This document shows, piece by piece, positions 22,387 to 59,763 of a stretch of DNA of 64,000 nucleotides. Origin of the DNA: Naegleria gruberi. Its lineage: Eukaryota. Numbering within the stretch: position 1 is the stretch's first letter; each line of letters opens with the position of its first letter. The DNA lies in assembly GCA_000004985.1 (NCBI GenBank), contig GG738891.1. One strand, 5' to 3'. A program made the translations under genes and the position numbers. The notes under the pieces are model-generated. The model searched no databases. It saw only the letters and a program-made list of their open reading frames with translations, and was not told the DNA's origin.

Positions 22387-23871
22387 TTAATGGGAAATGT
22401 AAGCAGCAGCTTCAAGGAATTGATCAAAAGAGAAGGTTGCTTGTCCAGTACTTTGCTTATCAAATAATTGGAATGAGTTTCTACAAATTCCAATAAAGAT
22501 AGTGAAATCAATATATTCAGCAAAGGAGAATGTACCTTGTTTGTCCTTATCAAAATTCTTGAACAATCTGTCAAGAGCAGATGGAGAAACTTGAACTCCT
22601 GAATATTGAATTGCTGTCTTGACTTCGTTCAAATCCAAAGTTCCACTTCTATTAGTATCAGTCTTTTCAAAAGCATTCTTCATGTTCATTAAATAATAGT
22701 GCAATTGTTCAAATTCATGGAAACCAATTTGACCAGAATTATCACGATCGAACATTTTGATCATCTTTTGAGTAACACTCTTATCAAAGACCATACCACC
22801 CTTTGACAAAACAGTTGATAATTCTTCAGCTGAGACTTGTCCGGACTTGTCAAGATCAACAGCATCGAACCAAGCCTTGAGTTGAGGATTTGGTTGAGTT
22901 TGTTGAATTGGCATGAATTGATTTTGACCTGGTTGTGGTTGTTGTCCAGTTTGACCTGGTTGTCCATATTGTGGTGGAACTTGACCTGGTTGTCCCACTG
23001 GTTGTTGACCAAATTGTGGTGGTTGTTGGCCAAATTGTGGTGGAACTTGACCTGGTTGTCCGAGTTGTGGATTTTGAGGTGGAACAGATGGTTGGCCATA
23101 TTGTGGGTTTTGACCTGGTTGTGGTTGTTGACCATATTGTGGTGGAACTTGACCTGGTTGTCCGAGCTGTGGATTTTGTGGTGGAACAGATGGTTGTCCA
23201 AATTGAGGATTAGTTGATGGAGGAACTTGTCCCATTGGTGGTTGTTGACCTGTTGGTGGAACTTGACCTGGTTGACCATATTGTGGATTTTGTGAAGGAA
23301 CAGATGGTTGACCATATTGTGGTGGTTGTTGTCCAGTTTGACCAGGTTGAGGTGGTTGTTGACCAAATTGTGGGGAAACTTGACCAGTTTGACCATATTG
23401 AGGTGGAACTTGTCCTGGTTGTCCCATTGGTGGTTGTTGTCCGTATTGAGATTGATTCATTGGAGGAACAGATGGTTGACCATATTGTGGATTTTGAGAT
23501 GGTGGAATTGGTGAGCTACTAACTGGTGGAGTAGTTTGACGAGGAACTTGTCCCATAGGTGGTTGTTGACCATATTGTTGAGGAACAGATGGCTGACCAT
23601 ATTGTGATTGTCCCATTGGAGGTTGTTGGCCGTATGGTGATTGTCCCATCGGTGGTTGTTGTCCATATTGACCATATTGTGATTGTCCCATTGGTGGTTG
23701 TTGACCGTATGGATGTTGTGGTTGGCCGTATGGAAGTTGTTGACCATATTGACCTCCGTATGGCGGTTGTTGTTGTTGACCATATTGACCGTATGGTTGT
23801 TGTGAAGAAGGAGGTTGTTGACCGTAGCCTTGAACTTGTGGTGGATGTTGACCGTATGGAGGTTGACTCAT
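22387..23871 (-). CDS. Penta-EF-hand (PEF; ALG-2/peflin-like) calcium-binding protein with a ~320-aa N-terminal P/Q/G/Y-rich repeat domain.
   Basis: C-terminal EF-hand loops DLDKSGQVSAEEL, DRDNSGQIGFHEF, DTNRSGTLDLNEV, DKDKQGTFSFAEY, followed by the PEF dimerisation tail. The N-terminus is (Q)YGQQPPMGQ… / QYGQPSVPPQNPQ repeats. ATG in AAAAATG context. Confidence 0.8.
   Translation of the reverse strand: MSQPPYGQHPPQVQGYGQQPPSSQQPYGQYGQQQQPPYGGQYGQQLPYGQPQHPYGQQPPMGQSQYGQYGQQPPMGQSPYGQQPPMGQSQYGQPSVPQQYGQQPPMGQVPRQTTPPVSSSPIPPSQNPQYGQPSVPPMNQSQYGQQPPMGQPGQVPPQYGQTGQVSPQFGQQPPQPGQTGQQPPQYGQPSVPSQNPQYGQPGQVPPTGQQPPMGQVPPSTNPQFGQPSVPPQNPQLGQPGQVPPQYGQQPQPGQNPQYGQPSVPPQNPQLGQPGQVPPQFGQQPPQFGQQPVGQPGQVPPQYGQPGQTGQQPQPGQNQFMPIQQTQPNPQLKAWFDAVDLDKSGQVSAEELSTVLSKGGMVFDKSVTQKMIKMFDRDNSGQIGFHEFEQLHYYLMNMKNAFEKTDTNRSGTLDLNEVKTAIQYSGVQVSPSALDRLFKNFDKDKQGTFSFAEYIDFTIFIGICRNSFQLFDKQSTGQATFSFDQFLEAAAYISH
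22900..23870 (-). repeat. Imperfect in-frame tandem DNA repeat encoding the PQY-rich domain of the PEF protein. It creates spurious overlapping ORFs on both strands.
   Basis: Recurring units such as ggtggaacttgacctggttgtcc and ccatattgtgg at roughly 60-100 nt periodicity. The six-frame track shows ORFs 22761..23396(-), 22837..23217(+), 22935..23213(+), 23214..23522(+), 23308..23514(+), 23457..23783(-) and 23559..23906(+) all inside it. Confidence 0.7.
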
Positions 23872-38793: not shown

Positions 38794-38866
38794 TGCCGAC
38801 ACCAGGGATCGAACCAGGGACCTTAAGATCTTCAGTCTTACGCTCTCCCAACTGAGCTATGTCGGC
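38794..38866 (-). tRNA. tRNA-Phe (anticodon GAA).
   Basis: Minus-strand sequence GCCGACA-TA-GCTC-AGTTGGGA-GAGC-G-TAAGA-CTGAAGA-TCTTA-AGGTC-CCTGG-TTCGATC-CCTGG-TGTCGGC-A forms a canonical cloverleaf. 7-bp acceptor, D-arm with A14/GG, anticodon loop with U33-GAA-A37, T-loop TTCGATC. It resembles canonical eukaryotic tRNA-Phe. One U·U mismatch in the T-stem (51:63). No encoded CCA. Confidence 0.9.
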
Positions 38867-43299: not shown

Positions 43300-43562
43300 T
43301 TTTTTAATTAAAAATAATAAAATATTTGTGATGATGATAGAAAATTGTTCATCAAAGGACAACCTGTTGTGATCTTTGTTGTAACTTGAATGGAACACAA
43401 TTTTAGATTAATGGATTGTGTTTATTTTGTGGTGGTTGTACTGTGTCGGATGATCGTATTGCAAGACTTTCATTATCTAACTTTTGTCATTTTCAAATAT
43501 GTTGATTATTATTGCAATGTTGAACACAATTTGGATGAGAACAAGGATTAGATTCTTTCTTG

Positions 43563-44831
43563 ATGATGGAAAGAGAAAGAAGTGAACTTGCTATTACAAT
43601 AAAGTTTAAAAAAATGACTTCGGCTCTGCAGCCAGGGAAAATGCTCAGCAACAATAACCAAACATCAAGTTGTTGCCCACCATCTTCTCAGTTGCAGCAT
43701 CAGCAAGGAGGTACAATGACTATCGGAAGAATGTCTTCAGTGGCCAATCATCATAAACGTGGTGGAGCTAATAGCAATGGAAAGAGAGGACTGAACATGA
43801 CTACAACAAGAATAAATCAACAGAAAGAAATTAATGATGGAGAGGGTATGAGAGATGATTCATCTCTCATTAATCAGAAGCTTCAAAATAGTAGTAATGA
43901 TAATAATAATTCGGAAAGGGAGAAGGAAACAATTGTTAATTCAGATCGTTTGAGATTATTGCTTTTTAATCATAAAAGCAGAAATACAATTTATAATAAT
44001 TCTCTAAATAAGCAACAAGTAACTGTTAAGAACTTGGTCCATGTCGGTGTTGAACAACAGCCAGCAAAAAAATATAATCATTCTCAATCAGAAAAATCAG
44101 ACAATTGTTTTGATGAAGGAAATCAAGAGAAAATTAATAGTACTGTGGAAGAAATGAATTCTATTATAAAACCGAAATGGTTAAAATCTATTGTGGATAA
44201 TCAGTGCGATTTGGGTTTTGTGAAGGAAAATGGAAATTGTACAAATATGAATCATTACCCAAAGATAAGGGAAAATAATTCTTTTATGGATACCAAATCA
44301 AAGAAAGTTTCAAAAGAGTCAATTAATGTGAAAAAGAAGAATGGTTCCAATAGGAAAATTGAAAGGACAGAAAAATCCTTTAATAATGTAATGTTGGAGT
44401 TATTCAAAGAAAGGTCAACCGAAATACAACCTCCACAAGATATTCAAAGTAATGACACAATGTTTACAAAGCTAACCAAGTCGTGGAATAGATTCTTATT
44501 CTGGTGGATTAAATGGAAGAGGGATTTCACCACCAACACCATTCACCAATTTTTGAGTTCATATGATCCAGTGATGAGGACATTTGAGTGTGTTTTCATA
44601 TTTTTCGAAACTTTTAGAATACCCTATCCTATTCGATATGCTGTTCATCGAATCAGACACTTTTTATATTTGATATTTCAATTTGTGTGGACATCCACAT
44701 TTCTCTTTGAGGAAAATTCAGAATTTGAACGTGAGCTTTTATCTCACAACAATAGAAGAAACGACTCTCAAATCTACAATGCCGATCCAAGATATTATTA
44801 CGATGATGTAAATTACTATTCACAAAATTAA
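43563..44831 (+). CDS. Hypothetical N/S/K-rich protein.
   Basis: ATG at 43563, 422 aa, mostly low complexity. The C-terminal ~120 aa are more complex (…FTTNTIHQFLSSYDPVMRTFECVFIFFETFRIPYPIRYAVHRIRHF…). Confidence 0.35.
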   Translation: MMERERSELAITIKFKKMTSALQPGKMLSNNNQTSSCCPPSSQLQHQQGGTMTIGRMSSVANHHKRGGANSNGKRGLNMTTTRINQQKEINDGEGMRDDSSLINQKLQNSSNDNNNSEREKETIVNSDRLRLLLFNHKSRNTIYNNSLNKQQVTVKNLVHVGVEQQPAKKYNHSQSEKSDNCFDEGNQEKINSTVEEMNSIIKPKWLKSIVDNQCDLGFVKENGNCTNMNHYPKIRENNSFMDTKSKKVSKESINVKKKNGSNRKIERTEKSFNNVMLELFKERSTEIQPPQDIQSNDTMFTKLTKSWNRFLFWWIKWKRDFTTNTIHQFLSSYDPVMRTFECVFIFFETFRIPYPIRYAVHRIRHFLYLIFQFVWTSTFLFEENSEFERELLSHNNRRNDSQIYNADPRYYYDDVNYYSQN

Positions 44832-45144
44832 TTTAAGATTATAAGATATAATAAGAAAATTGGTAGTATTAATATGAATTAGTTTATGCTCAACGTTAAT
44901 AGCTAAAGTAATAGAAAATATATTGAGAATAGGGAAGAACGCCTTTTATTAACGTTAAATATTTAAAAAAAATATTTTAAGGAAACTCAAAGCCTTAGAA
45001 AATTTCTAACCGACGAAAATTTTCATCCCTCAATCAAGCGTTCTATCATTGTGATTATTATATATATTGCGTGTATATTTATACTGTTGGAAATTGTAGG
45101 ACCAATCCGTTGATGATCTAATATTCACTCACAATTCGAGGAAA

Positions 45145-46173
45145 ATGATAAGCAACAACAAGTTACCATCATCCATATTATTATCATCATCTTCAAATTC
45201 TAATAACAATAACATTTCAACAACACCACGAGGGGAAATGCTTACCATCAATGATTTGCAATCACCTTCTCCGAATAGATCTGGAAGAGTAGCCTCTTCG
45301 GGTTTATTATTGGCAACATCAACTCCTCCTCCCCTCAATATTTCAAAGAAGCTGAATAATTCAACGATGGGTTTAGCAAATAGTAATAATAATAGCAACA
45401 ACAATAGTAGCAACAATAGTGCTCGTGTGAGTCCCCTCGTTGAAAGATTGAATGCAGTTAAGAACACAGCCCAATCATTTAATGGAGGATTAATGGAAGA
45501 TTTAAATTCTAGGAAGGAAGTAGAACAAACCAAAGTGTACGAACTAAGAGATACTGTATCTAGATTGGAGAAGGATTTGACTATGGAAATGAGGAAGAGA
45601 GCAGATGGAGACAAGGTCTTACAAACAATGTGTGATAACAAGATAAATACTATACAGGATTTGATAGAGAAGAAAATGTCTGAAAAGTTTTCTCAAATGC
45701 AACAAACTGTTGATACTCTCACTAAACGTGTTCTAAGTCTGGAAAAGTGTTTGGCTGAGGAGAAGGATTATTCATCCAAGTTTTCAACCTCTATGAAATC
45801 TGGTGTTTTGGGACAATTGGAAGAACTCAGAAATCTAGTTGAGGACGAAAGATTGAATCGATTGGATAGAGAATCTCAAATGATGAGAAAGTTCAATGAT
45901 GAATATTACAAACTCTCTCAAAAGTTAGACACTGAAAAGAAATCTAGGGAAATATTTATGAATTCCACACGTGAGGAAATTGAAAGAATTGAACAAGCTA
46001 AGGCCAAAATTGATCAGGACTTTAGAGCTCAACTCTTTGAAGAAATTGATTCGATTCGTGATGAAATCAAAGTTGAAAAGGAACAACGAGAAATTGTCGA
46101 TGAGCAAATAGTTTCTTCCTTAGATACGATTATCAAGGAAGTCCACGACTCTCTCAGATTAGTTACTAAATAA
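45145..46173 (+). CDS. Coiled-coil protein with an S/N-rich N-terminus.
   Basis: ATG in GAAAATG context. Residues ~120-340 form a continuous heptad-like coiled coil (…LEKDLTMEMRKRADGDKVLQTMCDNKINTIQDLIEKKMSEKFSQMQQTVDTLTKRVLSLEKCL…). Confidence 0.45.
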   Translation: MISNNKLPSSILLSSSSNSNNNNISTTPRGEMLTINDLQSPSPNRSGRVASSGLLLATSTPPPLNISKKLNNSTMGLANSNNNSNNNSSNNSARVSPLVERLNAVKNTAQSFNGGLMEDLNSRKEVEQTKVYELRDTVSRLEKDLTMEMRKRADGDKVLQTMCDNKINTIQDLIEKKMSEKFSQMQQTVDTLTKRVLSLEKCLAEEKDYSSKFSTSMKSGVLGQLEELRNLVEDERLNRLDRESQMMRKFNDEYYKLSQKLDTEKKSREIFMNSTREEIERIEQAKAKIDQDFRAQLFEEIDSIRDEIKVEKEQREIVDEQIVSSLDTIIKEVHDSLRLVTK

Positions 46174-46283
46174 AAGAAACAAACCTGTACTTCATTGATA
46201 CAGTATTTTACTAATGATATTTTTGATATCTAAGCTTTTCAATATTTCAACAAGATTCGATTACATTGCAATGGCATTTCCAG

Positions 46284-47531
46284 ATGGCGACAATGGCGAC
46301 TTTTTTATCAAAATTAGAAAACCTTCCATACCAGTTTGTATTTAAATTTACTAATCTCTCCAAGCAAAGATATCCAAAAAGTTCTTCAAAAAAAATGTCA
46401 TCAATACTCCACCTAGTTTTTAGATCAATTTTTAGAGTCTCTGTTTGGTGTTATGGTTGTTATCGATTTGTCACTGGTGCCTCGTCATCATCAAATAGTG
46501 ATGTCTCCTCGGAAACCTTGCTATGGAATAAATTTATATCTGCTGGAATGGATATCAAGTTTGAAGAGGTTGAAAAGTTCAGACAACAGTCCAGAACACT
46601 CATTCCTATCATGTTTGCTCCAATGGATAATTCTCTATTCGGATGTGCTGATAAAATTGAAAAAATTGAAGAATTGAGAGGTTCCTATTGGATTTCATTG
46701 GAAAAGAAACAGGGAGCAGTTATGGTATTTATGCATGGAGGTGGATTCATCTCTGGTCATCCAATTGGAATGGATTGTCAATCGATAGTGTATGCTTTAA
46801 AGGATTTCAATAAGAAGAATTCGACAACTCAAAAATGTAGTCACGTCTTGTCAGTTGAATATAGATTATGTGATGATCCAAATAATAAGGATAGAATGGA
46901 TAGAAATTTGTGTACAGATAATTTGAATGATCAATTGGAGGATTGTTATGAAGCTTTCAGATGGTTGATAGAGGAGAAGGGAATTAAGGCAAGTAATATT
47001 GTGCTTGCTGGTTATTCTGCTGGTGCTACACATGCTGCAATGCTAGTTTTGAAAAAGTTGATGAATAGTGAAAATCCAGAAATGTGGCCAATTCGATCAG
47101 TTGCCATGTGTTCAGCTTCATGTGATCTCTCCAATCGAATTGTTAACTCTGATGAGAAAAAAGCTGGTGGAGTAACAATTATTCATCAAGGTTTGAGAAA
47201 TCTCATTACCAAGTGCGTTCCACAAGAAGAAAAGGACAAGTACTCTTTGATAGGAACAATGAATGAAATGGAAAAACAAGATTCTTCCTTCTTTTCTAAA
47301 GTATTAAGCACCAAATGGATTGTCAATTATAGTAGTGATGAAGAATTGGCAGCTTCCAATTTATATCTTGTGGATAAATTGCAAATGAAAGCTCAGGAGT
47401 TGAATCTACCAGATCATCAAGTTGTAGAAATTGCTGAACCAAACCAAATGCATTGCTATTTAGTTGGTTATTCTGTTCTTCAAGTTGCCAAACAATCAAT
47501 GAGCAGATTCCTTGAAAATGCCTTCAATTAA
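46284..47531 (+). CDS. Alpha/beta-hydrolase fold esterase/lipase (HSL / arylacetamide-deacetylase-like, Abhydrolase_3).
   Basis: Oxyanion-hole HGGGF (VMVFMHGGGFISGHP). Nucleophile elbow G-Y-S-A-G (LAGYSAGATHAA). First ATG at 46284; the ORF-track start at 46266 is TTG. Confidence 0.75.
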   Translation: MATMATFLSKLENLPYQFVFKFTNLSKQRYPKSSSKKMSSILHLVFRSIFRVSVWCYGCYRFVTGASSSSNSDVSSETLLWNKFISAGMDIKFEEVEKFRQQSRTLIPIMFAPMDNSLFGCADKIEKIEELRGSYWISLEKKQGAVMVFMHGGGFISGHPIGMDCQSIVYALKDFNKKNSTTQKCSHVLSVEYRLCDDPNNKDRMDRNLCTDNLNDQLEDCYEAFRWLIEEKGIKASNIVLAGYSAGATHAAMLVLKKLMNSENPEMWPIRSVAMCSASCDLSNRIVNSDEKKAGGVTIIHQGLRNLITKCVPQEEKDKYSLIGTMNEMEKQDSSFFSKVLSTKWIVNYSSDEELAASNLYLVDKLQMKAQELNLPDHQVVEIAEPNQMHCYLVGYSVLQVAKQSMSRFLENAFN

Positions 47532-47657
47532 TAAACCTGTACATACTCCTTTTTATTCTAATAAGATATTAAGAAAAGTTTGTTGGACCATTTTTAGCTA
47601 CCTTAGCACCTTAACAAGGATAATCATTATTTATAATTTTGATGTTGATGTATGTAA

Positions 47658-47728
47658 TCGGGTGTGGTATAGTGGTAGCATTCCAGACTGTCACTCTGGC
47701 GACCCGGGTTCAATTCCCGGCACTCGAG
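47658..47728 (+). tRNA. tRNA-Asp (anticodon GTC).
   Basis: TCGGGTG-TG-GTAT-AGTGGTA-GCAT-T-CCAGA-CTGTCAC-TCTGG-CGAC-CCGGG-TTCAATT-CCCGG-CACTCGA-G. 7-bp acceptor stem including one G·U, anticodon stem CCAGA/TCTGG, loop CTGTCAC (GTC anticodon), perfect T-stem, discriminator G as expected for tRNA-Asp. D-stem is weak, as is typical of the GUAU-type tRNA-Asp D-stem. High similarity to eukaryotic tRNA-Asp. Confidence 0.8.
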
Positions 47729-48358
47729 TAACAATTTTATTTTATCCAGTTTATTTCTTTTTTTTTGTTTACGATTTTTATGTGTAATGTACTCCAGATA
47801 TCTTACTTCTTAAGTACGTTTTTATTTTTTAAAATTCTTTTTATTTCCATTTTTGGAAACCTCGGCTTGAAGGTCATTTTTTTTACATCCAAACTAGCTG
47901 AGTATTTTGGTAAATTCAAATTATTTTTTTAAACTACTTGATTTGTGTTTGAAAGAGTATGAAAAATGTCTCTTCTGTTACTTTCACCAACACTAGTAAT
48001 CGAGTTAAATCCTATCACCTTCCTCTAATCTCTGATATAAAAGCAGAGAAATTCAAAACATCCTTTTCCAAATAACAAGCTTCATCGAATTCATTAAACC
48101 ACTTTGGTTGCATTTCTCTTTTTTATTAGATTGATGAATTTTCAATCAAAAATCCTTGATAATTAGTTATGGCTTGGTCACATCCAGGGATTTGGATTTT
48201 ACTATTCATCATTTAATAATGATTAATTAAAAAGTAACCCAATAAACACAAAATTATAAGTTGACCCACTTGTTTTTGTACTATTTCCTCTTTTGTCAAT
48301 TAACATTTTGAGAAAATCATTAAAAAATAAAAATTCAAAATAACCAATTTTAAACAAA

Positions 48359-48753
48359 ATGAAAAAACTATCAATAACAAGCAAACTATTTACAAAGAAG
48401 TGGAAATTTTCCCAAAATCAAGTTCGATTTGTTCAAGTAAGTTTCAAACCCCAAATTAATTCACACAATAATCTCTGTTTTTGACAATGAAACTCACACA
48501 GACCGCATTGGTCACTGAGGAGGGAGATCGATTTGAACAGGAGGTTCAAAAAACACTCAAGGGAGATGTTGCCAAAACCATAATTGACTATCAAGGATGG
48601 AATGAAACTTTAGGATCATCCAGTGAGGCAATCGTTAAAGCAGAACGTTCAGAACAATTGAATGGACCAACGATGGAAGACCTTCAAAAACAAACCATTG
48701 AATTTCTTCATGAGAGAGAGGATAAGAAACAATATCCATTCGATAAAGAATAA
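48359..48753 (+). CDS. Small (~109 aa) protein with a predicted N-terminal mitochondrial-type presequence. Two exons: 48359..48436 and 48502..48753. Intron 48437..48501 (65 nt, GTAAGT…CACACAG).
   Basis: An ATG at 48359 (AAAATG), missed by the ORF track, encodes MKKLSITSKLFTKKWKFSQNQVRFVQ. This stretch is basic, lacks acidic residues and is amphipathic-looking. It is followed by GTAAGT. The acceptor at 48501 joins in frame to TALVTEEGDRFEQEVQKTLKGDVAKTIIDYQGWNETLGSS…PFDKE (ORF 48481..48753). Confidence 0.5.
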
Positions 48754-49641
48754 TCAATATGGAGATGAAATAAATTATTGTTCTACCTATTTCAAGCTCG
48801 AGAAAGGGATTTTTATTGAACATGAAAAGAACACGAATTGAGTATGAGAGATTATGAAGATATTCTGGTTAGGGATGATACAATACTTTAAATATCAAAG
48901 TTTATCCTCTTCAAATAGTAGTGCTGAGCTACTTAGTTGATTTTGTGACCATTAACTGAAATGTTACCATACTTGTAAATAATGACAAACAGAATAATGA
49001 AAGTAACGATACTACATGCAAGGAAACAGAAAAACAATCCCAAACCAATAGCTCCAAACTATTACAATTTCAAATTCTGATCTACTTACTTTTCTTCCTC
49101 TACTGCTATACTTGGTACGATTTCTTGTAATGAAAAAGAGAACAATCCAAATGATTGGCAAACAAAATCCACCCAAGAATAACAAAAAGGCCATGTCATC
49201 ATTCTTGTTCATTTCAGAATTTTCATTTGGCATGAGTATTTCATTTGGTCTATTTTCTGTGAGTGAATGCTGAGTTTTCAATTGCTTACTTACTGGTAAT
49301 TGGTTTGAGAAGGGTAACCATTATTGTGAACGAGTTGATCTTGCATTCGATAAATATATTTGTTTTCTATTCAAATTTGAGTTTCTACCAGTGATTAGTT
49401 TTTTTCTGATAATTGTTTCTCAAACAGAGTGAATCAAACACTTGTAGTCAATTTTGGCCATAAAACAAGTAACCCTTACAGTCAACATATTGGCATTAGA
49501 TTTCAATGTGCTGCTCTTTCTTCCTTTTTACCTTGTGTAATCGTGATACATAATTATTGGAATGTTATTGGAAGGTTACATGAATTCACAGTATTCAAAC
49601 TCTAATTCTGAAGAGATTTGAAGTTGGCGATTTCACAAATA

Positions 49642-49783
49642 GAGACCAATCGAGAGAGTAACACCAATTCTTATACTGATGAGAGTACATGAATCTTGGA
49701 ATAATATCACTCTTAATCATATGAAGAATGATCGAGTGAGCCTCATCGAACACGTCCATTGTTAAAACCGACAAGATATTAGA
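49642..49783 (-). pseudogene. Inverted 142-bp duplicate fragment of the RGS-domain exon of the C2-RGS gene (parent 53791..53932, + strand), ~96.5% identical. It lies in an otherwise non-coding, repeat-containing region.
   Basis: The reverse complement of 53791..53932 aligns gap-free to 49642..49783 with 5 mismatches over 142 nt. It encodes …RFMYSHQYKNWSYSLDWS / …DEAHSIILHMIKSDII (RGS-box C-terminal part). Similarity decays within ~20 nt on both flanks. Confidence 0.6.
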
Positions 49784-50424
49784 GGTCGCATGTCACGCTT
49801 CATAGTATTGTTGTGAACTTTGAAAATTCCCAAACCAATAGCTCCACACTATATCAATAATTCATTAATTAATCATATTCAACATCTTTAACAACTTACC
49901 TCTATCACCAGTCAATAAGGCATTTTGTCTTAACATTTGTTATAGTTTCGAAATTGCAGCAATCATCTGATACGTTTCCATAATGAGCATGTTAATATAT
50001 AGATCAGTACTTAAATGCTGACACTTGGTTAGGATAACAAATAGATTCCTTTTCAATTTTACAAATAAGGGATTGTAAAAATTATGTCATAACACCTATA
50101 GTCTATTATAGCACAGATTTGCTTTCTGACTAGAATGTTTTTGGAAGGTTACATACTTCTCCAGTGCTTTGAACCCTTGCTCTCAGTGTATTCATAATAT
50201 TCTTGTTATTAATTTCAACATTTAGTGAGCTGGTTAAACTTTTCATCAAAGAGGGGTAGAGCAGTACTTATTAATGAATATAGGTCAATACTATTTGTTA
50301 ATATTGAATCAAGAAAAGCATTGAAAATATTGTGGACTAAACCAAACTTTTGTTTACAAAAAATCAATCTGATCCTCTTTACTTATACAAATTGAATTAT
50401 TTGTACTTGTATATTATACATCAA

Positions 50425-51051
50425 TTATTCCTTAGTAAATTTACCATAAATAACTTTGGCATCATTGAAATCATCAACAACAACCTTTGAAGTAACATGC
50501 TTAACACCATCCTTTTCAACTTCTCTATATTTCAATGAACCTCTAATAGAGACAATGACACCCTTCTTGAAGAATTTAGTGGCAACCTTTGCCAAAACTG
50601 GATTGAAGGAAACTACACTGTGGAATGTAGATTGTTCTTCAATATTTTCACCCTTCTTAATTCTCTCCGAGGTAACAACAGTCAAACCAGTAAAAGTTCC
50701 ACCATTTGCAATTTCCTTTATAACAGCATCAGAAGCAAGAGTACCAATAAGATGAACAGAATTGACTGATCCTCTAATTTGGAAAGTTTGTCCTTCTTCT
50801 TGAGAAGGTGCTGGCTTTGAAGATACATTTGTCTTTTTGTATGAAGAATTTGATGATGATGAATAAGAAGGAGTATCACTATTTGATGATGAAGAGGATG
50901 AAGTTGTTGTTGTTGGTTTAACGCTCACTCTTCTGGTAACATCGGAGAGGGTTTGGCTTGTGTGATAGGAACAAGCAGAAGAAGCGAATTGATGGTGGTG
51001 GTGATACAAGGCTGAAGATCTGTTGCCAATAATTGAAATTCTCTTTAACAT
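50425..51051 (-). CDS. Single-stranded DNA-binding protein, mitochondrial type (OB-fold SSB) with an N-terminal presequence.
   Basis: …NSVHLIGTLASDAVIKEIANGGTFTGLTVVTSERIKKGENIEEQSTFHSVVSFNPVLAKVATKFFKKGVIVSIRGSLKYREVEKDGVKHVTSKVVVDDF… matches the SSB pattern (N.V.L.G.L…, H.V..F…LA…LKKG..V.V.G.L). The N-terminal ~80 aa are R/S/T-rich and lack acidic residues. ATG in AAAAAAATG context. Confidence 0.7.
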   Translation of the reverse strand: MLKRISIIGNRSSALYHHHHQFASSACSYHTSQTLSDVTRRVSVKPTTTTSSSSSSNSDTPSYSSSSNSSYKKTNVSSKPAPSQEEGQTFQIRGSVNSVHLIGTLASDAVIKEIANGGTFTGLTVVTSERIKKGENIEEQSTFHSVVSFNPVLAKVATKFFKKGVIVSIRGSLKYREVEKDGVKHVTSKVVVDDFNDAKVIYGKFTKE

Positions 51052-51599
51052 TTTTTTAATTTTTTAAATTTTCCAAAGTTGAGCGGGAGAGTTTCATATC
51101 CTCGGAATTGATGAAATGATGATGATATTGATGATGGAATGAATAGGATGAGATTATTCATAGGAATGTATCAATAAGGTCTCATTCCGATTAAATTAAT
51201 TTTTCATCAAATCAATTATTAAAATTTCAGAGATGATGAAGAACAAAGTAATCTTTCCTTTCATCAAACATCTTTTCAACTGCAAGCAAATATCATTCTC
51301 TTTGCATATAAACTAATAGAAAATGAAAAGATCAAGATAGCCGTTGCCAACTGCAGTTGTTGTTTCCAAATAGAAAAAAATGGGCAACGTGAACAAGCAA
51401 TTGGATCGTCATCAATTGTTTGATATTCAAAAGAGAACAACCTGTAGGTAGAAGAATTATTGTTACTTTAAATGTATCTAATTTATTGTTGCTCCTATCA
51501 TGATCTTTTGGATTTTTAAATTCCGATACTTGTTCATGAATTATAATAATATTAATTTTAATAATGGGAATTTAATCATGATAATTTAATTTGGATAAT

Positions 51600-52463
51600 A
51601 TGATAATAGTATCGGCAAAGGAAATTAAGGAATGGTACTCGTTGTTTATGAAACAATTTCAAGATACCAAAGTTTCAAAGGATAAATACTTGCCAAGCCT
51701 AAAGATTCATAGTTTACCATCGAGTTATGAAAATACGACAACAATAATCACAACAACATCTCCATCTTTGAATAATAGTAATACTAATGGAAATAATTCA
51801 TCTTTAAATAATCAACAATTGGATTCTAATGAAATTAGTGATAAACAAGTAGAAATTGAAATTGTTGATAAGAAGGAAATGACAACGTCGACAGCACCAA
51901 ATCATGAAAAACAAGAACCAAAGAAATTGACAGATCTTACCTATCCAGAATTAATTTATGATACAACCCACTTGTCATTTCTCAAATATTTCTATTCGGA
52001 AGATTATCCAGGATCAAATTATAGGAAGAGTCAGTTACAGTTCGTACATTTCATACCATCGTATGAAATTTATTTGAAAGGTAATAGAGTATCACAAGCA
52101 GATTGGACCTATACAGCCATAACAAGCCAGAAGAGGATGGAAGATACAGAACCAGAAAAGAAGAAGAAGCATACACCATTTTCCATCTCCTTTCATGACT
52201 TGTCTGTATTCTTTGAAGTTATCTATGGATATCTTCAACTGAGGCCTTTCGAAATTGGAAAGCTGCCCAAACACCTGCACAGTCCAGAAGCATGTACAAG
52301 ATATGTTTTTCAAAATGTATTGAATTTTGTTGGAATTGATACTGATAATTTGGAAAACAAAGCAATCTCCAAACAACAATTTATGGATTATTGTTTTCAT
52401 AAATTGAGTCAAGAAAGTACTCAAGTATTGGAACAGTCGTCTCAAACCAACCTTGTCAATTAA
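51600..52463 (+). CDS. Hypothetical protein.
   Basis: First ATG at 51600 (the ORF-track start at 51591 is TTG), ~287 aa, no recognised domain. Confidence 0.4.
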   Translation: MIIVSAKEIKEWYSLFMKQFQDTKVSKDKYLPSLKIHSLPSSYENTTTIITTTSPSLNNSNTNGNNSSLNNQQLDSNEISDKQVEIEIVDKKEMTTSTAPNHEKQEPKKLTDLTYPELIYDTTHLSFLKYFYSEDYPGSNYRKSQLQFVHFIPSYEIYLKGNRVSQADWTYTAITSQKRMEDTEPEKKKKHTPFSISFHDLSVFFEVIYGYLQLRPFEIGKLPKHLHSPEACTRYVFQNVLNFVGIDTDNLENKAISKQQFMDYCFHKLSQESTQVLEQSSQTNLVN

Positions 52464-52656
52464 TTGTAAATTTTGTAAATATTTCAAAAACTCCCAAATT
52501 AAATTACATTTCAAATCAAATATTAATGAGCTTGGCAAGTTTATCTTTCCAAGAATTACTGAATCAGTGAATTGTAAATTATTCAAAGAATATTGCAACT
52601 AGTTCTTGCATGTCAACGTCAGAAATTCATCAGTGATTATTTCAATTTTAAAAAAA

Positions 52657-54236
52657 ATGGTGAATGGAATCTTTAATAGTGGCAGAGCATCTGTCGATTT
52701 TAATTACCGTCCTGGTATGCATCGGTTTGCAGATCCTTCAATGACCAGTGACAGAATAATGCTAGGAAGAAGTCCAGGAGCTGGTTTCGGAGGCATGTAT
52801 TTAATGTCAGGTACATCAGAAATTTCTGCTTTAACAACACCTTCACAATCCACAAAAACATCTTTTGATTCGATTGGAAAAATTTGGATTAATTTAATTG
52901 AAGCAAGAAAACTTTTGGCAGCTGACGTGAATGGAACCTCAGATCCTGTAAGTTTTTGTGTATTTCATATTTAATTTTACAAATTTGATATAGTATGCTG
53001 TTATATTGTGTAGGTGTTATGAATTTTAAATTGAGTTTAATAATAATGAAAGTTGGTGATATTCAAAAAAAGTCACGTGTCATGTACCATAATTTAGATC
53101 CAATTTGGAAGGAAGAATTTTATTTTGATATTTGTGAAACGAATGAAAGTTTAAAGATTTATATTATGGATAGTGATACAATTGGTTCAGATGATTTTTT
53201 AGGATTGGTTGAAGTGCCAATCAAGTCAATTGTTGAATCAAAAAATGATTTAATAGACAAGTGGTATAAATTGAAATCTACTTCAGTAAGTTTACAATTT
53301 TTCAAATCAAATGAAAATTAACTTTCTCAGTTGACTACTCGAGTAACAGGTGAACTTCATTTGCAACTCAAATTTTTACCAAACAATGCACGTCAAGCCA
53401 TAATGTCACCAATCACGCCAATTCCAACTTATTCGGATACTGATTTATCCAGTGAACGATCCACCGATTATATGGAACAAGTAGATGATCTGGGAGCCAA
53501 TTTTTCAATGAATACTGAAAAAATGTTGAGTGACATTCATTCAGCTCGTTATTTACATTCATTTATGAAGGAGCAATTTTGTGAGGAATGTTTGGAATTC
53601 ATTTATGCAGTGGAACAATTTAGGAAAATTTATAAAAATCGACAAGTGGATCCAAAAGAATTGAAGAAGGTTGCATTTGTAGTTTATGAGAGATTTTTAC
53701 AATTTGGAAGTCCACAGGAGGTTGCAATTCCGTTCATGATTAGAGTAGAGCTACAGGACTTTTTTGAGAACAAATTGGAAGATGAGACGTCTAATATATT
53801 GTCGGTTTTAACAATTGACGTGTTCGATGAGGCTCACTCGATCATTCTTCACATGATTAAGAGTGACATTATTCCAAGATTCATGTACTCTCATCAGTAT
53901 AAGAATTGGAGTTACTCTCTCGATTGGTCTCTCCAATTCCGAATGATGGAAGAAAAGAGGAGAAAGCAAAGTTTGACCTATCTCATTGAAATGATGGATG
54001 AGAAGAGTTTGCAATTTTTAAAGAAGAGAATTATTGAGAGACAAAAGAAAAAGAATTCCTCCAATAGTACTTCTTGTAATTCTGCATTTGATGATTGTGA
54101 TTCGGATGAGGAAGGAATTTTGGAAGAATTGAATTTGAGTGATTTCAAATCAACTAAATTTTCCTCAACCCAACAAGCTCAACAGGGCCAACAACAACCA
54201 ACAATTGATATGGGAGAGTTTGTTTTAACCTTGTAA
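52657..54236 (+). CDS. C2-domain + RGS-domain protein, multi-exon. Last intron 53286..53330 (45 nt, GTAAGT…CTCAG). An upstream junction within 52950..53040 is unresolved.
   Basis: C2 N-part IWINLIEARKLLAADVNGTSDP, immediately followed by GTAAGT (52950). C2 continuation …KLSLIIMKVGDIQKKSRVMYHNLDPIWKEEFYFDI…IYIMDSDTIGSDDFLG…WYKLKSTS, then GTAAGT. Next exon LTTRVTGELHLQLKFLPNN…, then RGS box …RYLHSFMKEQFCEECLEFIYAVEQFRKI…VAFVVYERFLQFGSPQEV…DEAHSIILHMIKSDIIPRFMYS. ATG at 52657 (AAAAAAATG). Confidence 0.65.
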
Positions 54237-54382
54237 ATAATAAATAAGCTCACAGAATTTGATTTATTTCCCTTTTTTCACTTTTTTCATTAATAATCAG
54301 GATGTTGGTTGCGTGCTGGTATCGTTTGGGTTAACGGAATGGTCAAATGTCTGGTCAAGGTAAAGAGCATTTATACTCAGGT

Positions 54383-55482
54383 TTAACAGTATCTAATGTC
54401 ATCCTCATCTTTTTCATAGACAAGTACTTCATAAATCAACGTTTTCAACTTGGGAGCTAGTGCTAATTTAATTTTCTCAATGTGATCTTCTTTAAAAATT
54501 GTTCCATCCAAGTCCAATGTTGTCAAGCTCTTCATGAGACATATAACTTGTAAATCCAATTCTGGATCACTGCCAATCTGTGAACATCCCCTCAATGACA
54601 AACAGCTTAATTGACTCAATTTGGCGAGTTGTACTAAAGAATCATGAGTTATTGATCCATTACATCCCAGGTTTAGTGAGGTCAATTTTGGCAGCTTTTC
54701 ACAAATTACTTTAACTTCCGAATCTCCAATCCAGGTACTTCCAAGGTCAAGGCTTGTGAGATTTCTCAATTTTGAGCAGACAAATGAAAGCAAATCCTTG
54801 TTCATATTTGATAGTCCAATATCAAGAGATTGTAAATCTGTTAAAGCGCAAATATTTCTTATATCACCATGGTTGATTTCAGTACGACACAATCCAAGAG
54901 ATTTCAGTTGTTTCATTGAGCTGATTATTGTTGTGCCAACATTTCCAACTTTGGTATGTCTCATGTTTAATTCAGTTAAATTTTCCAAGTTTTGTATGTA
55001 TTTCAAGTTCCTTGGATTTATACTACAAACTTCCAATGTTAAGGAGTGTAAAAGTTTCATATTTTGGCAGAAACTCATTCCCTTTTCATCTATTGAAGCT
55101 CCATACAGAGACAAACTTGTTAATTTATCCTTCAAACAATCACTCAATATCTTAAAATAACTACTATCAACAGTAACAAGCCAATTACTTCCAATTCCAT
55201 CATAATGATAGGCAAATGATGTGATATTTGCATGTTGCTGCAATCAAGAGAAAGAATTTCTTGAAATGGTTCAAAATAGAACGATTTCACCTTCAAATGA
55301 ATAGGAAATTGTCTAATTGCCACCAAATACCACTGTTTTGATACGAGAGAATACCTCTCCATCACTTCTTTTCTATCCAAAAATTTTAATATTTCATAAC
55401 AAATATCATCGGGTATGATCGGTGCCTCACTACTTTCAAACTTCTTTACAGGAGGAGAGGCAGATAACCCTTGCTTGTCCAT
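54383..55482 (-). CDS. F-box / LRR protein with 2 exons: 55291..55482 and 54383..55237. Intron 55238..55290 (53 nt, GTGAAA…ATTGCAG).
   Basis: Exon 1 has the F-box PIIPDDICYEILKFLDRKEVMERYSLVSKQWYLVAIRQ and ends …FPIHLK followed by GTGAAA. A phase-0 acceptor joins QHANITSFAYHYDGIGSNWL…, followed by LRRs (…LTSLSLYGASIDEKG…, LHSLTLEVCSINPRNL…, LTELNMRHTKVGN…, LTSLDLGSTWIGDSEV…). ATG at 55482 (ACAAAACATG). Confidence 0.65.
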
Positions 55483-56419
55483 GTTTTGTATTGGATTTTG
55501 CTGCTTTTGGGGGTTTTGATGGTTTACTCATTTTTTTATTGAGTGAACTTGAACCTCCTTAATAGAATTTAGAGATTTAATGAGAGATAATTGTTGATTA
55601 CAATAATCCATGGTCATTTAGTAAGGCAACGCCTCTCTCTTATTAATTTACTTAATTAGTGTAGGGCAGAGTGTGATTTTAACCTGTCCCTTCAATCAAG
55701 GTACTTATCATTGTTCTGATACACGTATTCAATGAAACAAAAATATTGTGAAGATTTCTTGTTTTTGGATTCTTATTAAGTTGGTAGATTGAAGTGTATC
55801 AAGATTAGAGAATAAATTGGAATCAAACTTTTATACAATGTTCTTGAAAAGAAAAGTCGATATTCCTGTATGAATCTATCAAGTGCAGGTTTAGACTCAG
55901 AAAACACCATTTCAATTAAAATAAACAAAAATACAAACACCACATAAATGACTCATTAATCCAAATTGTAATCAATTTTTGTAAACTTTCCAAAAAGATC
56001 TTTAATTGTACAGTTTTCAAAAACAACTCCTAAAATCACCATATTTGAAATTGTAAATCCAAAAGGCGCCAAACAAATGAGTTCCATCGAGCAAATCCAC
56101 GAAAAATCATCAAATCTCAATATTTATTTTTAGAAGCAACATTTGAGTCATTATTGCTTTCTCTGAAAAGTGCGCCAAAAAAACCTTCCAATTTGAACCT
56201 CAATCTTCATCCCTTCAAATATGACACGTTCTCTTCACCACATCATAATAAGCAGCACTTGCTGAGTTTTATTAATAACCAAGGAATAAAACTACTAGTA
56301 GCTGTTGGGCAAGGGCATTTGAATAAAACGGTTAGCAAGGGAGTGGTGACTCGAACAATTTTCCATAATAAAAAAAGATAACAACTTGAATCAACATTGA
56401 TTGTAATATAATAATAGAT

Positions 56420-56692
56420 ATGGCTCAAAGATCTTCATTGCCACTTCATAGTCAAGAAGAGGAACAAGCTTCCTTAACTGCTAATGCTGCTCCTCATCAT
56501 CATCCTCATCATAGAATTAAACAACAGGATGAGTCACATTTTGTGATATTAGAGAATGGATCTTCTGTTCCATTGTCAGATGTGATGGATAAGGAGGAAA
56601 GAGAAAATCCGAGTGATTTGTTGTTGAGAATGATGAAGAAGAGAGCTGTTGCATCACTACTCGATTCACGAAGGAATACTTTGAAGCAATAA
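56420..56692 (+). CDS. Small hypothetical protein (90 aa).
   Basis: ATG start, His-rich stretch (PHHHPHHR), no domain recognised. Could be non-coding. Confidence 0.3.
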   Translation: MAQRSSLPLHSQEEEQASLTANAAPHHHPHHRIKQQDESHFVILENGSSVPLSDVMDKEERENPSDLLLRMMKKRAVASLLDSRRNTLKQ

Positions 56693-56943
56693 TTGAGTAT
56701 TCTTTCGAATGTATTTGTATGGTATTCTTCATAGTATTGGAATACATTGGATAACAATCAACATGCATAATGTTGATTTTGTATAATATAGCACATCGAG
56801 TATAGCAACACCTCTAACTTATCTAACTAAATAAAAACGTTTTAATTATTTCAATCATTCTCTATTCGAAATGTTTCTTTTGAAATTTCAGGCTTTGATT
56901 CCTTGTTCCTCGTTTCGAATGAAAAGAAAATAAAATTCAAGTT

Positions 56944-59763
56944 CTAAAAGCTTTCAAAACTTGCCTTCTGATTTGACTTTCTAATTCTTCTTCCCAAATC
57001 CTTGTCTAATGGAACGTTACTGGCACGAATATTCTTAAGATTGGGTGATCTTGCAACAAGTGTCTTGATACTCTTTTCATTAAGACTAGTTCCTCTAATG
57101 TCAACAATTGCCAGATAGGGAAGTGTTGATTTTTTGGATTGGAATTTGAGTTGTGTCAGTTGAGTACATGAAGATACATTCATCTTGATGAGAGAATTAG
57201 ATCCTTCAGGTATTATTATTGATTTGACATTTCCACTATTCATGCTTAATACCCTCATCGATGGAAGAATATTAATTGAAGGAATTTCTCCATCAAATGT
57301 TAAACTTTCCAAATTTGATAACTCACTCAAAACCTCTTGAAATTTCGGTCCAACCTTTCCCTCATGAATTGCAATCCTTTTCAGATTTTTAAAGAGTGGA
57401 ATACTTTGTCTAAAATTCACAATGTTACAACTCCTTAATGTTAGAGAGTGGACGCTAGAGAAGGCGTTTTCCTTTGCCTCATTTTGTACGACCAATTCCT
57501 TAATTTCACAATTGGTTGCATTGATATCTTTCAATAAATTAGATTTCAGATAAACGTAGGAGGTATAGGTAATGTTCAAGCTTTCAAGAAGTGGTGCAAA
57601 TATTGAGAATTTCACATCGGTTGCCTGCTTTAGTAAAATCTCCAATCTTCTCAAATTCTTGTGGTCTATATTGAAAACGAATGAGTCATTGGAAAATCTA
57701 GATGACAAACCAAACTCCTCTAAATTATTGATATTCATCAATAAACGTGACATTCTCACCGATGAAATGTGTTTCATATTGCTTTCAATGTGAAAGTGTA
57801 GCTTCTTCAATGCCTTCATGTTTTCATATTGATTTGACAGATAGGTCCACAGAGGTGACTCAAAATCTCCATAATAGAACAGTGATTCGAATGTATGCAT
57901 CATTGGTTCTGGTGTCATACTTCTCAATCCATTACAATTGGAAAGTTTGATGTGGCGAATTTGTGGATAAATCTCACGATCTCCCAATTCAAAACTGAAT
58001 TCTCTTAGACTTTTTACATGTTTCAGGGAGAGTTTCTCGAGAACTATTCCATTATTTTCAATTAAATGAAGTCCCACACAAGCAATTGATACCTTTTCGA
58101 GTTGAGGCATGGAAGAGATTTTCAAAGTTCTCAGCTGTACAAAATTATTCACGTATGGATCTTTGAGAATATGAATCGATCGAATATTAAAGCAATCTCT
58201 AATTCTAAACTCAGTCAAAGAGTCAGAACATTTTCCAAGCAGTGCATTCAAGTGTCCATTGAACATGAAAGAATTTGCAATTCGTAAATTTTGTAATTTT
58301 TTCAATTCACTCAGCACCATGAGCTCTCCAAAATTTTGAAGTATTAACTTTTCTATATTTGGTAAATCCAACTGTACAAGACTCTCTCTACAGCAAACTG
58401 GATAGTTAATGAAACGTAGCTGTTTCAGAGAGTTGCTTTTGAGAATTACTTTCCCATCTACTTCAGTGTTAGAATCTGGTCGAATTATGGAAACATTGAG
58501 GTATTGTAAATTTGGAAGATTATTGAGAATTTTCTGAATATCTCTTGCTTCCTTTGTGCGAAATGCTTCAATAACCATCTTGGTTAAATTATTTCTTGGA
58601 ATGGTTGGTAAATTGAATGGCTGTATGCAATTCAAACCCCCAATCAAAATTTCTTCCATTTGTGGCAAAACTTCTTCTCTTTCAATTTGGAAAAATGTAT
58701 TCACAAAATCTTCTATTGTAATATTTTGACATCCAAAACTCTTCAATGATGTCCCTAGTTGATTACTGATCGCCAATAATTCATTCTTACTAAACTCATA
58801 ACATGTTATGTTTCCCCTCTTGTTAAATCCAAAATGTAAAGATTCCAAACTATTTAAACTCGATATAAACTCATTAAACCCCTGATTGGCAATAAATGAT
58901 AAATTTTGATTGGCATCATTTGTGAAAAATGAAATTTTCAATCTTTTAACATTGGTCTGAGCTAGAAATTCCTTAATAATCCTCAATTCATTCGAAACAT
59001 CCTTAAATTTAATATTCAATAATTGTAAATCACACAACTCGGTAAAAGACTCTGCCAAATATTGAATATCATTCCTTTCCAATGAAATATACATGTACTT
59101 TTCAAAATCCAAAACCAATCTCGTCACATTCACTAAAAATGGGAAATGTTCCAAATAAATTGAAAAGAAAGACCTCAAGGTTGTGAAATTACTAATAGGA
59201 AGAGAAATATTTGACAAGATTGCCATTCCCAATGTTGAACTCGTCGAAGAATCAAACACCAAAGCATTTGAAATTGTTGGAAGGAAATTCATTTCATCCA
59301 ATCCTTGCCAAAACTCCTTTCTCATCAAGTATTCACTCCTCAAATAGGAACACGTTTGAGAGAATTTCAAAATTGAATTTAAATCCAAATAACTGACAAT
59401 AATTCTCATCTGATAGAGGGGAATATATTGGAAAAAGTACTTTTCGGAATTGTTAACAAGATTGGGTCTTCTTCTTTTGGCTTCAATTTCTGTAATGTCC
59501 ACTTCTTCAACCTCGTAGTCATCATCATCTCCTACTACTACTAGTTGATGATTAATTTCATTATTTTCCTCTTGATGATTATTGGTTTTACTATTTTCTT
59601 GGAATTTTCGTTTTAGTGGATTTTCATTATTTTCATCATCATCATCGGAAATGACCACTACATCATCATCACTACTACTTTCCGAAGAGGAAGATGAATC
59701 TTCATCCTCCTCCTCATCACTAAAATCCAAGTCAATTTCGTTGCTTACTTGACTTTTAGTCAT
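56944..59763 (-). CDS. Large F-box-like / leucine-rich-repeat protein with an acidic N-terminus.
   Basis: ATG at 59763 (AATTGAAATG). Acidic DFSDEEEDEDSSSSSESSSDDD. F-box-like YIPLYQMRIIVSYLDLNSILKFSQTCSYLRSEYL. More than 20 irregular LRRs through the rest of the protein. Confidence 0.6.
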   Translation of the reverse strand: MTKSQVSNEIDLDFSDEEEDEDSSSSSESSSDDDVVVISDDDDENNENPLKRKFQENSKTNNHQEENNEINHQLVVVGDDDDYEVEEVDITEIEAKRRRPNLVNNSEKYFFQYIPLYQMRIIVSYLDLNSILKFSQTCSYLRSEYLMRKEFWQGLDEMNFLPTISNALVFDSSTSSTLGMAILSNISLPISNFTTLRSFFSIYLEHFPFLVNVTRLVLDFEKYMYISLERNDIQYLAESFTELCDLQLLNIKFKDVSNELRIIKEFLAQTNVKRLKISFFTNDANQNLSFIANQGFNEFISSLNSLESLHFGFNKRGNITCYEFSKNELLAISNQLGTSLKSFGCQNITIEDFVNTFFQIEREEVLPQMEEILIGGLNCIQPFNLPTIPRNNLTKMVIEAFRTKEARDIQKILNNLPNLQYLNVSIIRPDSNTEVDGKVILKSNSLKQLRFINYPVCCRESLVQLDLPNIEKLILQNFGELMVLSELKKLQNLRIANSFMFNGHLNALLGKCSDSLTEFRIRDCFNIRSIHILKDPYVNNFVQLRTLKISSMPQLEKVSIACVGLHLIENNGIVLEKLSLKHVKSLREFSFELGDREIYPQIRHIKLSNCNGLRSMTPEPMMHTFESLFYYGDFESPLWTYLSNQYENMKALKKLHFHIESNMKHISSVRMSRLLMNINNLEEFGLSSRFSNDSFVFNIDHKNLRRLEILLKQATDVKFSIFAPLLESLNITYTSYVYLKSNLLKDINATNCEIKELVVQNEAKENAFSSVHSLTLRSCNIVNFRQSIPLFKNLKRIAIHEGKVGPKFQEVLSELSNLESLTFDGEIPSINILPSMRVLSMNSGNVKSIIIPEGSNSLIKMNVSSCTQLTQLKFQSKKSTLPYLAIVDIRGTSLNEKSIKTLVARSPNLKNIRASNVPLDKDLGRRIRKSNQKASFESF

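Follow-up and report, generated by a model that had tools for sequence, protein, structure and literature searches.

A Short Inverted Copy of Part of an RGS Exon in Non-Coding DNA of a Neighbouring Naegleria gruberi Gene, Probably a Relic of a Duplicative Insertion

Introduction

A piece of the coding exon of a Naegleria gruberi gene for a protein with C2 and RGS domains (C2-RGS) recurs, in inverted orientation, a few kilobases away on the same scaffold. Both loci lie in a 64,000-nucleotide stretch of DNA of strain NEG-M, which was analysed as a whole and is called the window below. The original prediction offered two explanations for the second locus. It could be a source of antisense RNA that pairs with the transcript of the parent gene, or it could be a relic of a duplication. 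Here, we asked which of these explanations the locus supports, and how the copy may have reached its present position.

Results and Discussion

Extent and Uniqueness of the Match

The two arms were compared by blastn. The plus strand at 49641-49791 proved to be the reverse complement of 53782-53932, with an ungapped identity of 95.4% (144 of 151 nucleotides, E=2.6e-65). A repeat search returned the same pair as inverted arms of 151 nt that are 95% complementary and separated by 3,990 nt of the same scaffold. When the region 49500-49900 was aligned by MAFFT with the reverse complement of 53650-54050, a single unbroken and near-identical block was obtained, and the flanks could not be aligned. 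Both ends of the match are abrupt, and no DNA similarity was detected beyond the 151 nt by either MAFFT or blastn, which bears out the sharp boundaries claimed earlier.

The match reported originally, 137 of 142 nt without indels between 49642-49783 and 53791-53932, was reproduced exactly. Its five mismatches are located at 49663, 49706, 49721, 49757, and 49775. Outside this core, the match continues for 1 nt on one side and for 8 nt, six of them identical, on the other. An identity of at least 95% over at least 130 nt was thus found, and it extends over the full 151-nt alignment. The copy had also been described as lying 4 kb upstream of the parent gene. This distance is right for the parent segment, which is 4.0 kb away, but the start of the gene is only 2.9 kb away. 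The features discussed in this work are collected in Table 1.

Table 1. Positions of the RGS-exon copy, its parent, and the surrounding features in the window
Feature	Position	Strand	Basis or remark
C2-RGS gene NAEGRDRAFT_51651, XP_002673332.1	52657..54236	+	100% to the cluster holding XP_002673332.1; Pfam C2 and RGS
Parent segment, last exon of C2-RGS	53782..53932	+	Codons 331-381 of the 481-aa model
RGS-exon copy, 151 nt	49641..49791	- (RGS-sense)	144/151 identity, E 2.6e-65
Host gene NAEGRDRAFT_71542, XP_002673392.1, 122-aa predicted two-TM protein	48933..49936	-	Annotated protein mapped to the window
Intron 1 of annotated NAEGRDRAFT_71542, 560 nt, holds the RGS copy	49340..49899	-	GT-AG mapping
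36-nt patch, 31/36 identical, with a 25-nt core of 24/25	49823..49858	-	Resembles the host intron 3/exon 4 junction (49033-49068)
22-nt patch, 21/22 identical to 50133-50154	49560..49581	-	Repeat search, blastn

The region around the copy and the C2-RGS gene were searched against the whole window by self-blast, and no third copy was found in the 64 kb. No comparable match between loci was present among the other 1.2-kb tiles of the window. The only other strong tile score, at about 23 kb, was due to internal tandem repeats in coding sequence. These repeats occupy 22951-23803 within the minus-strand ORF 22387-23871, and they are imperfect, with periods of 21-114 nt and 65-95% matches; the ORF probably encodes a low-complexity repeat protein. 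Outside the window, a 29-mer common to both arms was not found in the viral contigs or the JGI metagenome contigs searched. In a collection of 5.8 billion protein sequences, the RGS segment was found only in the parent cluster and its orthologues. Exact look-ups in other assemblies were blank for the 59-aa and 54-aa ORFs of the copy, for the ORF of the neighbouring SSB gene, and for three annotated N. gruberi proteins including XP_002673392.1.

These searches bear on the idea that the fragment was captured by a mobile element of Pack-MULE-like or Helitron-like type, or that it is a member of a dispersed repeat. Gene-fragment capture does yield intra-exonic pieces with sharp borders, and short repeats (the 22-nt pair in Table 1) are present around the copy. 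Against this stand the two copies in 64 kb, the restriction of the protein segment to the parent cluster and its orthologues, and the blank searches of viral and JGI metagenome contigs. Furthermore, neither terminal inverted repeats nor target-site duplications were found around the fragment. The best inverted pair was 27 nt long at 70% identity and did not bracket the copy, so it was not considered credible, and a poly(A) tract is missing as well. Capture by a transposon was rejected for the lack of terminal inverted repeats, and an origin from a mobile element or repeat of any of these kinds is very unlikely.

We also considered that the copy might be an error of assembly, due for instance to a chimeric clone or a wrongly joined read. 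Cloning chimeras can produce short inverted insertions. However, if a read of one and the same locus had been mis-assembled, far fewer differences between the arms would be expected than the 7 observed, and the sequence is continuous and free of gaps. We regard this explanation as extremely unlikely.

The Parent Gene

The deposited model of the parent gene NAEGRDRAFT_51651 (398 aa) joins 52947 to 53331, and the core of the C2 domain is skipped as a result. We obtained a revised model of 481 aa with four exons (52657-52947, 52994-53009, 53053-53285, and 53331-54236), the second of which is a micro-exon of 16 nt. The introns are 46, 43, and 45 nt long. The predicted 481-aa protein matches Pfam C2 with an E-value of 1e-22 and Pfam RGS with an E-value of 2.4e-14, and it aligns end to end with a 478-aa protein of N. 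lovaniensis. Judged by these alignments, the predicted four-exon model fits better than the deposited one, which needs correcting. The nearest named relatives, which are 47-48% identical, are C2 and RGS proteins from N. lovaniensis and N. fowleri.

In the product of the last exon, Pfam RGS corresponds to residues 63-192, and the duplicated fragment to residues 151-201. The fragment encodes the final ~42 residues of the RGS box, which is its C-terminal third, and 9 more residues. Its borders lie inside the 906-nt last exon, away from the splice sites. Downstream, the C2-RGS gene (plus strand, stop codon at 54236) is convergent with an LRR gene (minus strand, stop codon at 54383). The two stop codons are separated by 147 nt, and the 3′ UTRs of these genes may overlap.

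The Copy Lies in Non-Coding DNA of a Minus-Strand Gene

The surroundings of the copy had been described as an ORF-poor island without any other similarity to the C2-RGS gene. The second part of this description holds: in a tblastn search of 48.8-50.45 kb with the 481-aa protein, nothing collinear was found beyond the fragment, and the next best match had an E-value of about 1. The first part has to be amended, since an annotated minus-strand gene, NAEGRDRAFT_71542, occupies the region. Its protein could be mapped in a unique way with GT-AG introns, which gave the exons 49936-49900, 49339-49294, 49249-49090, and 49058-48933, and introns of 560, 44, and 31 nt. No Pfam family scored above threshold for this 122-aa two-TM protein, and no homologue outside N. 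gruberi was found in the protein collection.

The copy is located in intron 1, 108 nt past the donor and 301 nt ahead of the acceptor. With its 560 nt, this intron is more than ten times as long as each of the five other introns in NAEGRDRAFT_71542 and C2-RGS (44, 31, 46, 43, and 45 nt). The 31-nt intron of the host gene is, for its part, very short. The two tiny 5′ exons of the host gene (37 and 46 nt) may be mispredicted. In that case, the copy would belong to the 5′ flank, and the ATG at 49232 would follow about 400 nt downstream of it. Whether intron or 5′ flank, the copy is in non-coding DNA of a minus-strand gene either way.

The other flank of the copy faces the 3′ end of the SSB gene, which is also on the minus strand. 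The SSB ORF (50425-51051) is a single exon and is 100% identical to the N. gruberi protein XP_002673393.1 (NAEGRDRAFT_51649). A literature search on the three locus tags found no papers. In the interval from the SSB stop codon to the TM gene, a sub-threshold Rfam match to a SNORD29-like C/D-box snoRNA was obtained on the minus strand at 50178-50254 (25.5 bits, E=0.12; the gathering score is 48). The motifs TGATGA and CTGA occur there, and a terminal-stem scan was unsupportive. Two tRNA genes were also noted in the window, namely tRNA-Asp(GTC) at 47658-47728 on the plus strand, some 1.2 kb beyond the 3′ end of the TM gene, and tRNA-Phe(GAA) at 38794-38866 on the minus strand.

Comparison with N. 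lovaniensis and with a Sister Strain

Positions 43560-59763 of the window were compared with the corresponding N. lovaniensis locus (PYSW02000039.1, 277857-299586). Within 10 kb on either side of its RGS orthologue, N. lovaniensis was found to have no second copy of its own RGS exon in either orientation. The host TM gene, the SSB gene, the 51591 ORF, and the hydrolase gene are not neighbours of RGS in that species, and the 45145 ORF (SF-assemblin) and the 43560 ORF have orthologues there that lie in inverted orientation with respect to RGS. The block that comprises the hydrolase, tRNA-Asp, TM, and SSB genes and the 51591 ORF is replaced by a gene for a 1,243-aa protein and a kinase gene. The orthologue of the 56944 ORF is kept downstream. 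On the basis of this comparison, the copy is probably lineage-specific. It lies beside a synteny breakpoint, and the host gene itself is not syntenic in N. lovaniensis. The inverted synteny nearby made an inversion breakpoint with duplication at a staggered break a candidate. We rejected it, since the parent gene runs intact through the segment that was duplicated.

A close relative of the NEG-M strain is present in the ENA metagenome ERZ929261 (PRJEB11402), the contigs L001-L003 of which are 97.0-99.3% identical to the window over 50407-55458. These contigs span the RGS and SSB genes but do not reach the site of the copy, as they end 18 nt beyond the SSB stop codon. The lineage of the copy has changed by ~4%, compared with 1-3% between the strains. 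At these rough rates, the insertion probably predates the split of the strains.

Coding Capacity and Substitutions of the Copy

In the RGS frame, the copy is a stand-alone open stretch of 50 codons, and an upstream TGA just outside the fragment closes the frame. The Pfam RGS match of the copy is weak and covers positions 85-116 of the 117-position model, so the domain is incomplete. Read from the nearest upstream acceptor-like site (TATAG/TG at 49849), each of the three frames meets a stop codon within the fragment or ahead of it. The copy therefore cannot add an RGS module to any product. There is also no continuity of frame between the copy and the host exons.

The copy and the parent differ at seven positions, of which three are non-synonymous (E>A, I>M, and S>C) and four synonymous. 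The S>C change arose in the copy, as the motif NWSYSLDW is conserved in N. lovaniensis and N. fowleri. The I>M change probably arose on the copy lineage as well. At the synonymous site 53867, which is polymorphic in the parent, the sister strain (ERZ929261 contig L001, with 98.4% identity to the window) has the same base as the copy, and the change thus belongs to the NEG-M parent. The pN/pS ratio of copy versus parent is 0.17 (Fisher p=0.025), which becomes about p=0.14 when purifying selection on the parent lineage is allowed for. Since half of the history took place in the parent under purifying selection, this ratio is no evidence that the copy is constrained. The low divergence had been taken as a possible sign of constraint, and this view was not confirmed: the seven differences include three amino-acid changes, at least one of which arose on the lineage of the copy, and N. 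lovaniensis is without an equivalent near its orthologue.

The excess of synonymous differences would, on the other hand, fit past coding constraint, and high-identity patches with sharp edges resemble conversion tracts. The copy might accordingly be what is left of a larger inverted RGS paralogue, which decayed until only 151 nt, recently homogenised with the parent by gene conversion, could still be recognised. We find this unlikely in view of the tblastn search of 48.8-50.45 kb described above, which gave nothing collinear beyond the fragment and no other match better than an E-value of about 1. The flanks of the copy carry host-gene-like sequence instead, and no RGS paralogue is present nearby in N. 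lovaniensis. A decayed full RGS paralogue was rejected, as the flanks are without similarity to the RGS protein.

The Antisense Hypothesis

No local hairpin or foldback was detected at the copy. Compared with shuffled sequences, the folding z-scores were -0.48 for the minus strand (the intron) and -0.38 for the plus strand. No Rfam family matched over the copy, and a C/D-box scan was blank too. An intronic snoRNA or other structured RNA was rejected on the grounds that no Rfam match covers the copy and that its folding is no better than that of shuffles.

A natural antisense or endo-siRNA source would work in a different way. A plus-strand RNA from the 49.6-kb locus would pair over about 150 nt with the C2-RGS mRNA, and Dicer and Argonaute would act on the duplex and so tune RGS expression. 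The 151 nt at 95% complementarity are ample for the formation of dsRNA. Candidate homologues of Dicer and Argonaute are encoded in Naegleria genomes, although RNAi has not been demonstrated experimentally in this genus (PMC13315211). Small-RNA loci derived from pseudogenes and duplications are known in other organisms (PMC2708354, PMC3237417). At the locus itself, however, the sole annotated unit over the copy is NAEGRDRAFT_71542, and no ORF or gene is found on the plus strand over the copy. Because the minus strand of the copy is RGS-sense, transcription of the host gene or read-through from SSB would yield sense rather than antisense RNA. The earlier suggestion that transcripts of both loci could pair is not borne out in the form in which it was made.

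The arrangement of the arms points the same way. The copy has no adjacent second arm and no foldback, and three genes of mixed orientation lie between the two arms, which makes a single hairpin transcript implausible. In addition, N. lovaniensis is without a counterpart of the copy near its RGS orthologue. Taken with the orientation of the annotated transcript, this makes regulation of RGS by antisense RNA from the copy decidedly unlikely. A dsRNA or antisense role of the copy is thus unsupported, though not refuted, by the sequence, and the architecture of the locus does not favour it.

The young inverted duplications that form plant MIRNA genes (PMC3237417) and the endo-siRNA loci derived from pseudogenes (PMC2708354) resemble the present locus in that an inverted piece of a target gene is, in principle, complementary to the parent mRNA. 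Those loci possess either two adjacent arms that fold in one transcript or a pseudogene that is demonstrably transcribed in antisense. In contrast, the RGS copy consists of one arm without a foldback, and the annotated transcript over it has the sense orientation.

A further possibility is that the copy belongs to an RNAi circuit of Naegleria, in which it would act in trans as a young trigger or decoy and couple the expression of the two neighbouring genes. We consider it highly improbable, whichever of two routes is assumed. By the first, cryptic transcription of the plus strand would produce an antisense RNA against the C2-RGS mRNA. By the second, small RNAs against the RGS mRNA, originating for example from the convergent overlap with the LRR gene, would also hit the host pre-mRNA through the shared 151 nt.

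Origin of the Copy

The reading of the locus as a duplication relic describes it best, as the copy is a specific, inverted piece of the RGS-box exon with low divergence. In our opinion, it is probably a lineage-specific and non-functional relic of a small inverted duplicative insertion into non-coding DNA of NAEGRDRAFT_71542. The copied piece is intra-exonic and inverted, it has sharp ends and a template in cis, and it shows no hallmarks of a transposon. This combination argues for a templated insertion, template switching, or fragment capture. The event may have begun with a chromosome break or a stalled replication fork at the host locus. Repair would then most likely have proceeded by copying from a template 4 kb away in cis, or by capturing a fragment of it, in the manner of templated insertion, template switching, or 'filler DNA'. 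Afterwards, the copy would have drifted by about 4%.

Break repair has been shown experimentally to yield templated insertions, among them inverted insertions and insertions derived from distant loci (PMC11724301). The insertions in the yeast Break-Ins data share several properties with the RGS copy: the copied stretch is short, its borders are sharp, the orientation is often inverted, and transposon features are absent (PMC11724301). Such insertions sometimes come with additional small templated patches. In the case of the RGS copy, by contrast, the event has to be read from a single evolved allele. With its 151 nt, the copy is longer than typical local inserts produced by polymerase theta or foldback (5-34 nt) and falls within the size range of 'distant' insertions.

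The copy can also be compared with pseudogenes that arise as duplicated gene fragments. Like them, it is a partial exon copy of high identity in a non-coding context, in which replacement changes accumulate, and it is without a start codon, splice continuity, or a full domain. It differs from them in being very short (50 codons), inverted, only 4 kb from its parent, and placed in the intron or 5′ region of another gene.

Two short patches accompany the copy on the minus strand, the 36-nt patch 31 nt upstream of it and the 22-nt patch 59 nt downstream (Table 1). Both are direct repeats, collinear with the host gene's own sequence, and the sequences that they match are 0.6-0.8 kb away. Pairwise blastn of the two sub-regions gave E-values of 6e-7 and 2e-4, and matches of 35-45 bits also occurred in several control tiles. 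In a Smith-Waterman comparison of these two regions, the best local alignment scored 26, against a maximum of 19 in 200 shuffles. The significance of the patches is marginal relative to window-wide controls in this AT-rich window, and their flanks do not align. We treat them as a lead only. A multi-template insertion could have left such patches, and so could a partial tandem duplication of the host gene at an earlier time. We do not assert a duplication of this second kind, in which the RGS piece would sit near the junction, as the collinear matches are too short and near background.

Conclusions

The RGS copy adds one more case to a familiar category, that of short duplicated gene fragments or repair scars. 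For annotation, it would explain the oddly long intron of NAEGRDRAFT_71542, and the neighbouring C2-RGS model is to be corrected. If RNA data tied the copy to an endogenous small-RNA pathway, it would be the first concrete endo-siRNA locus in Naegleria. If the plain reading as a duplicative insertion is true, error-prone break repair or micro-duplication has left a small footprint at this locus of a free-living amoeboflagellate, and such footprints, gathered genome-wide, could mark repair pathways in Heterolobosea.
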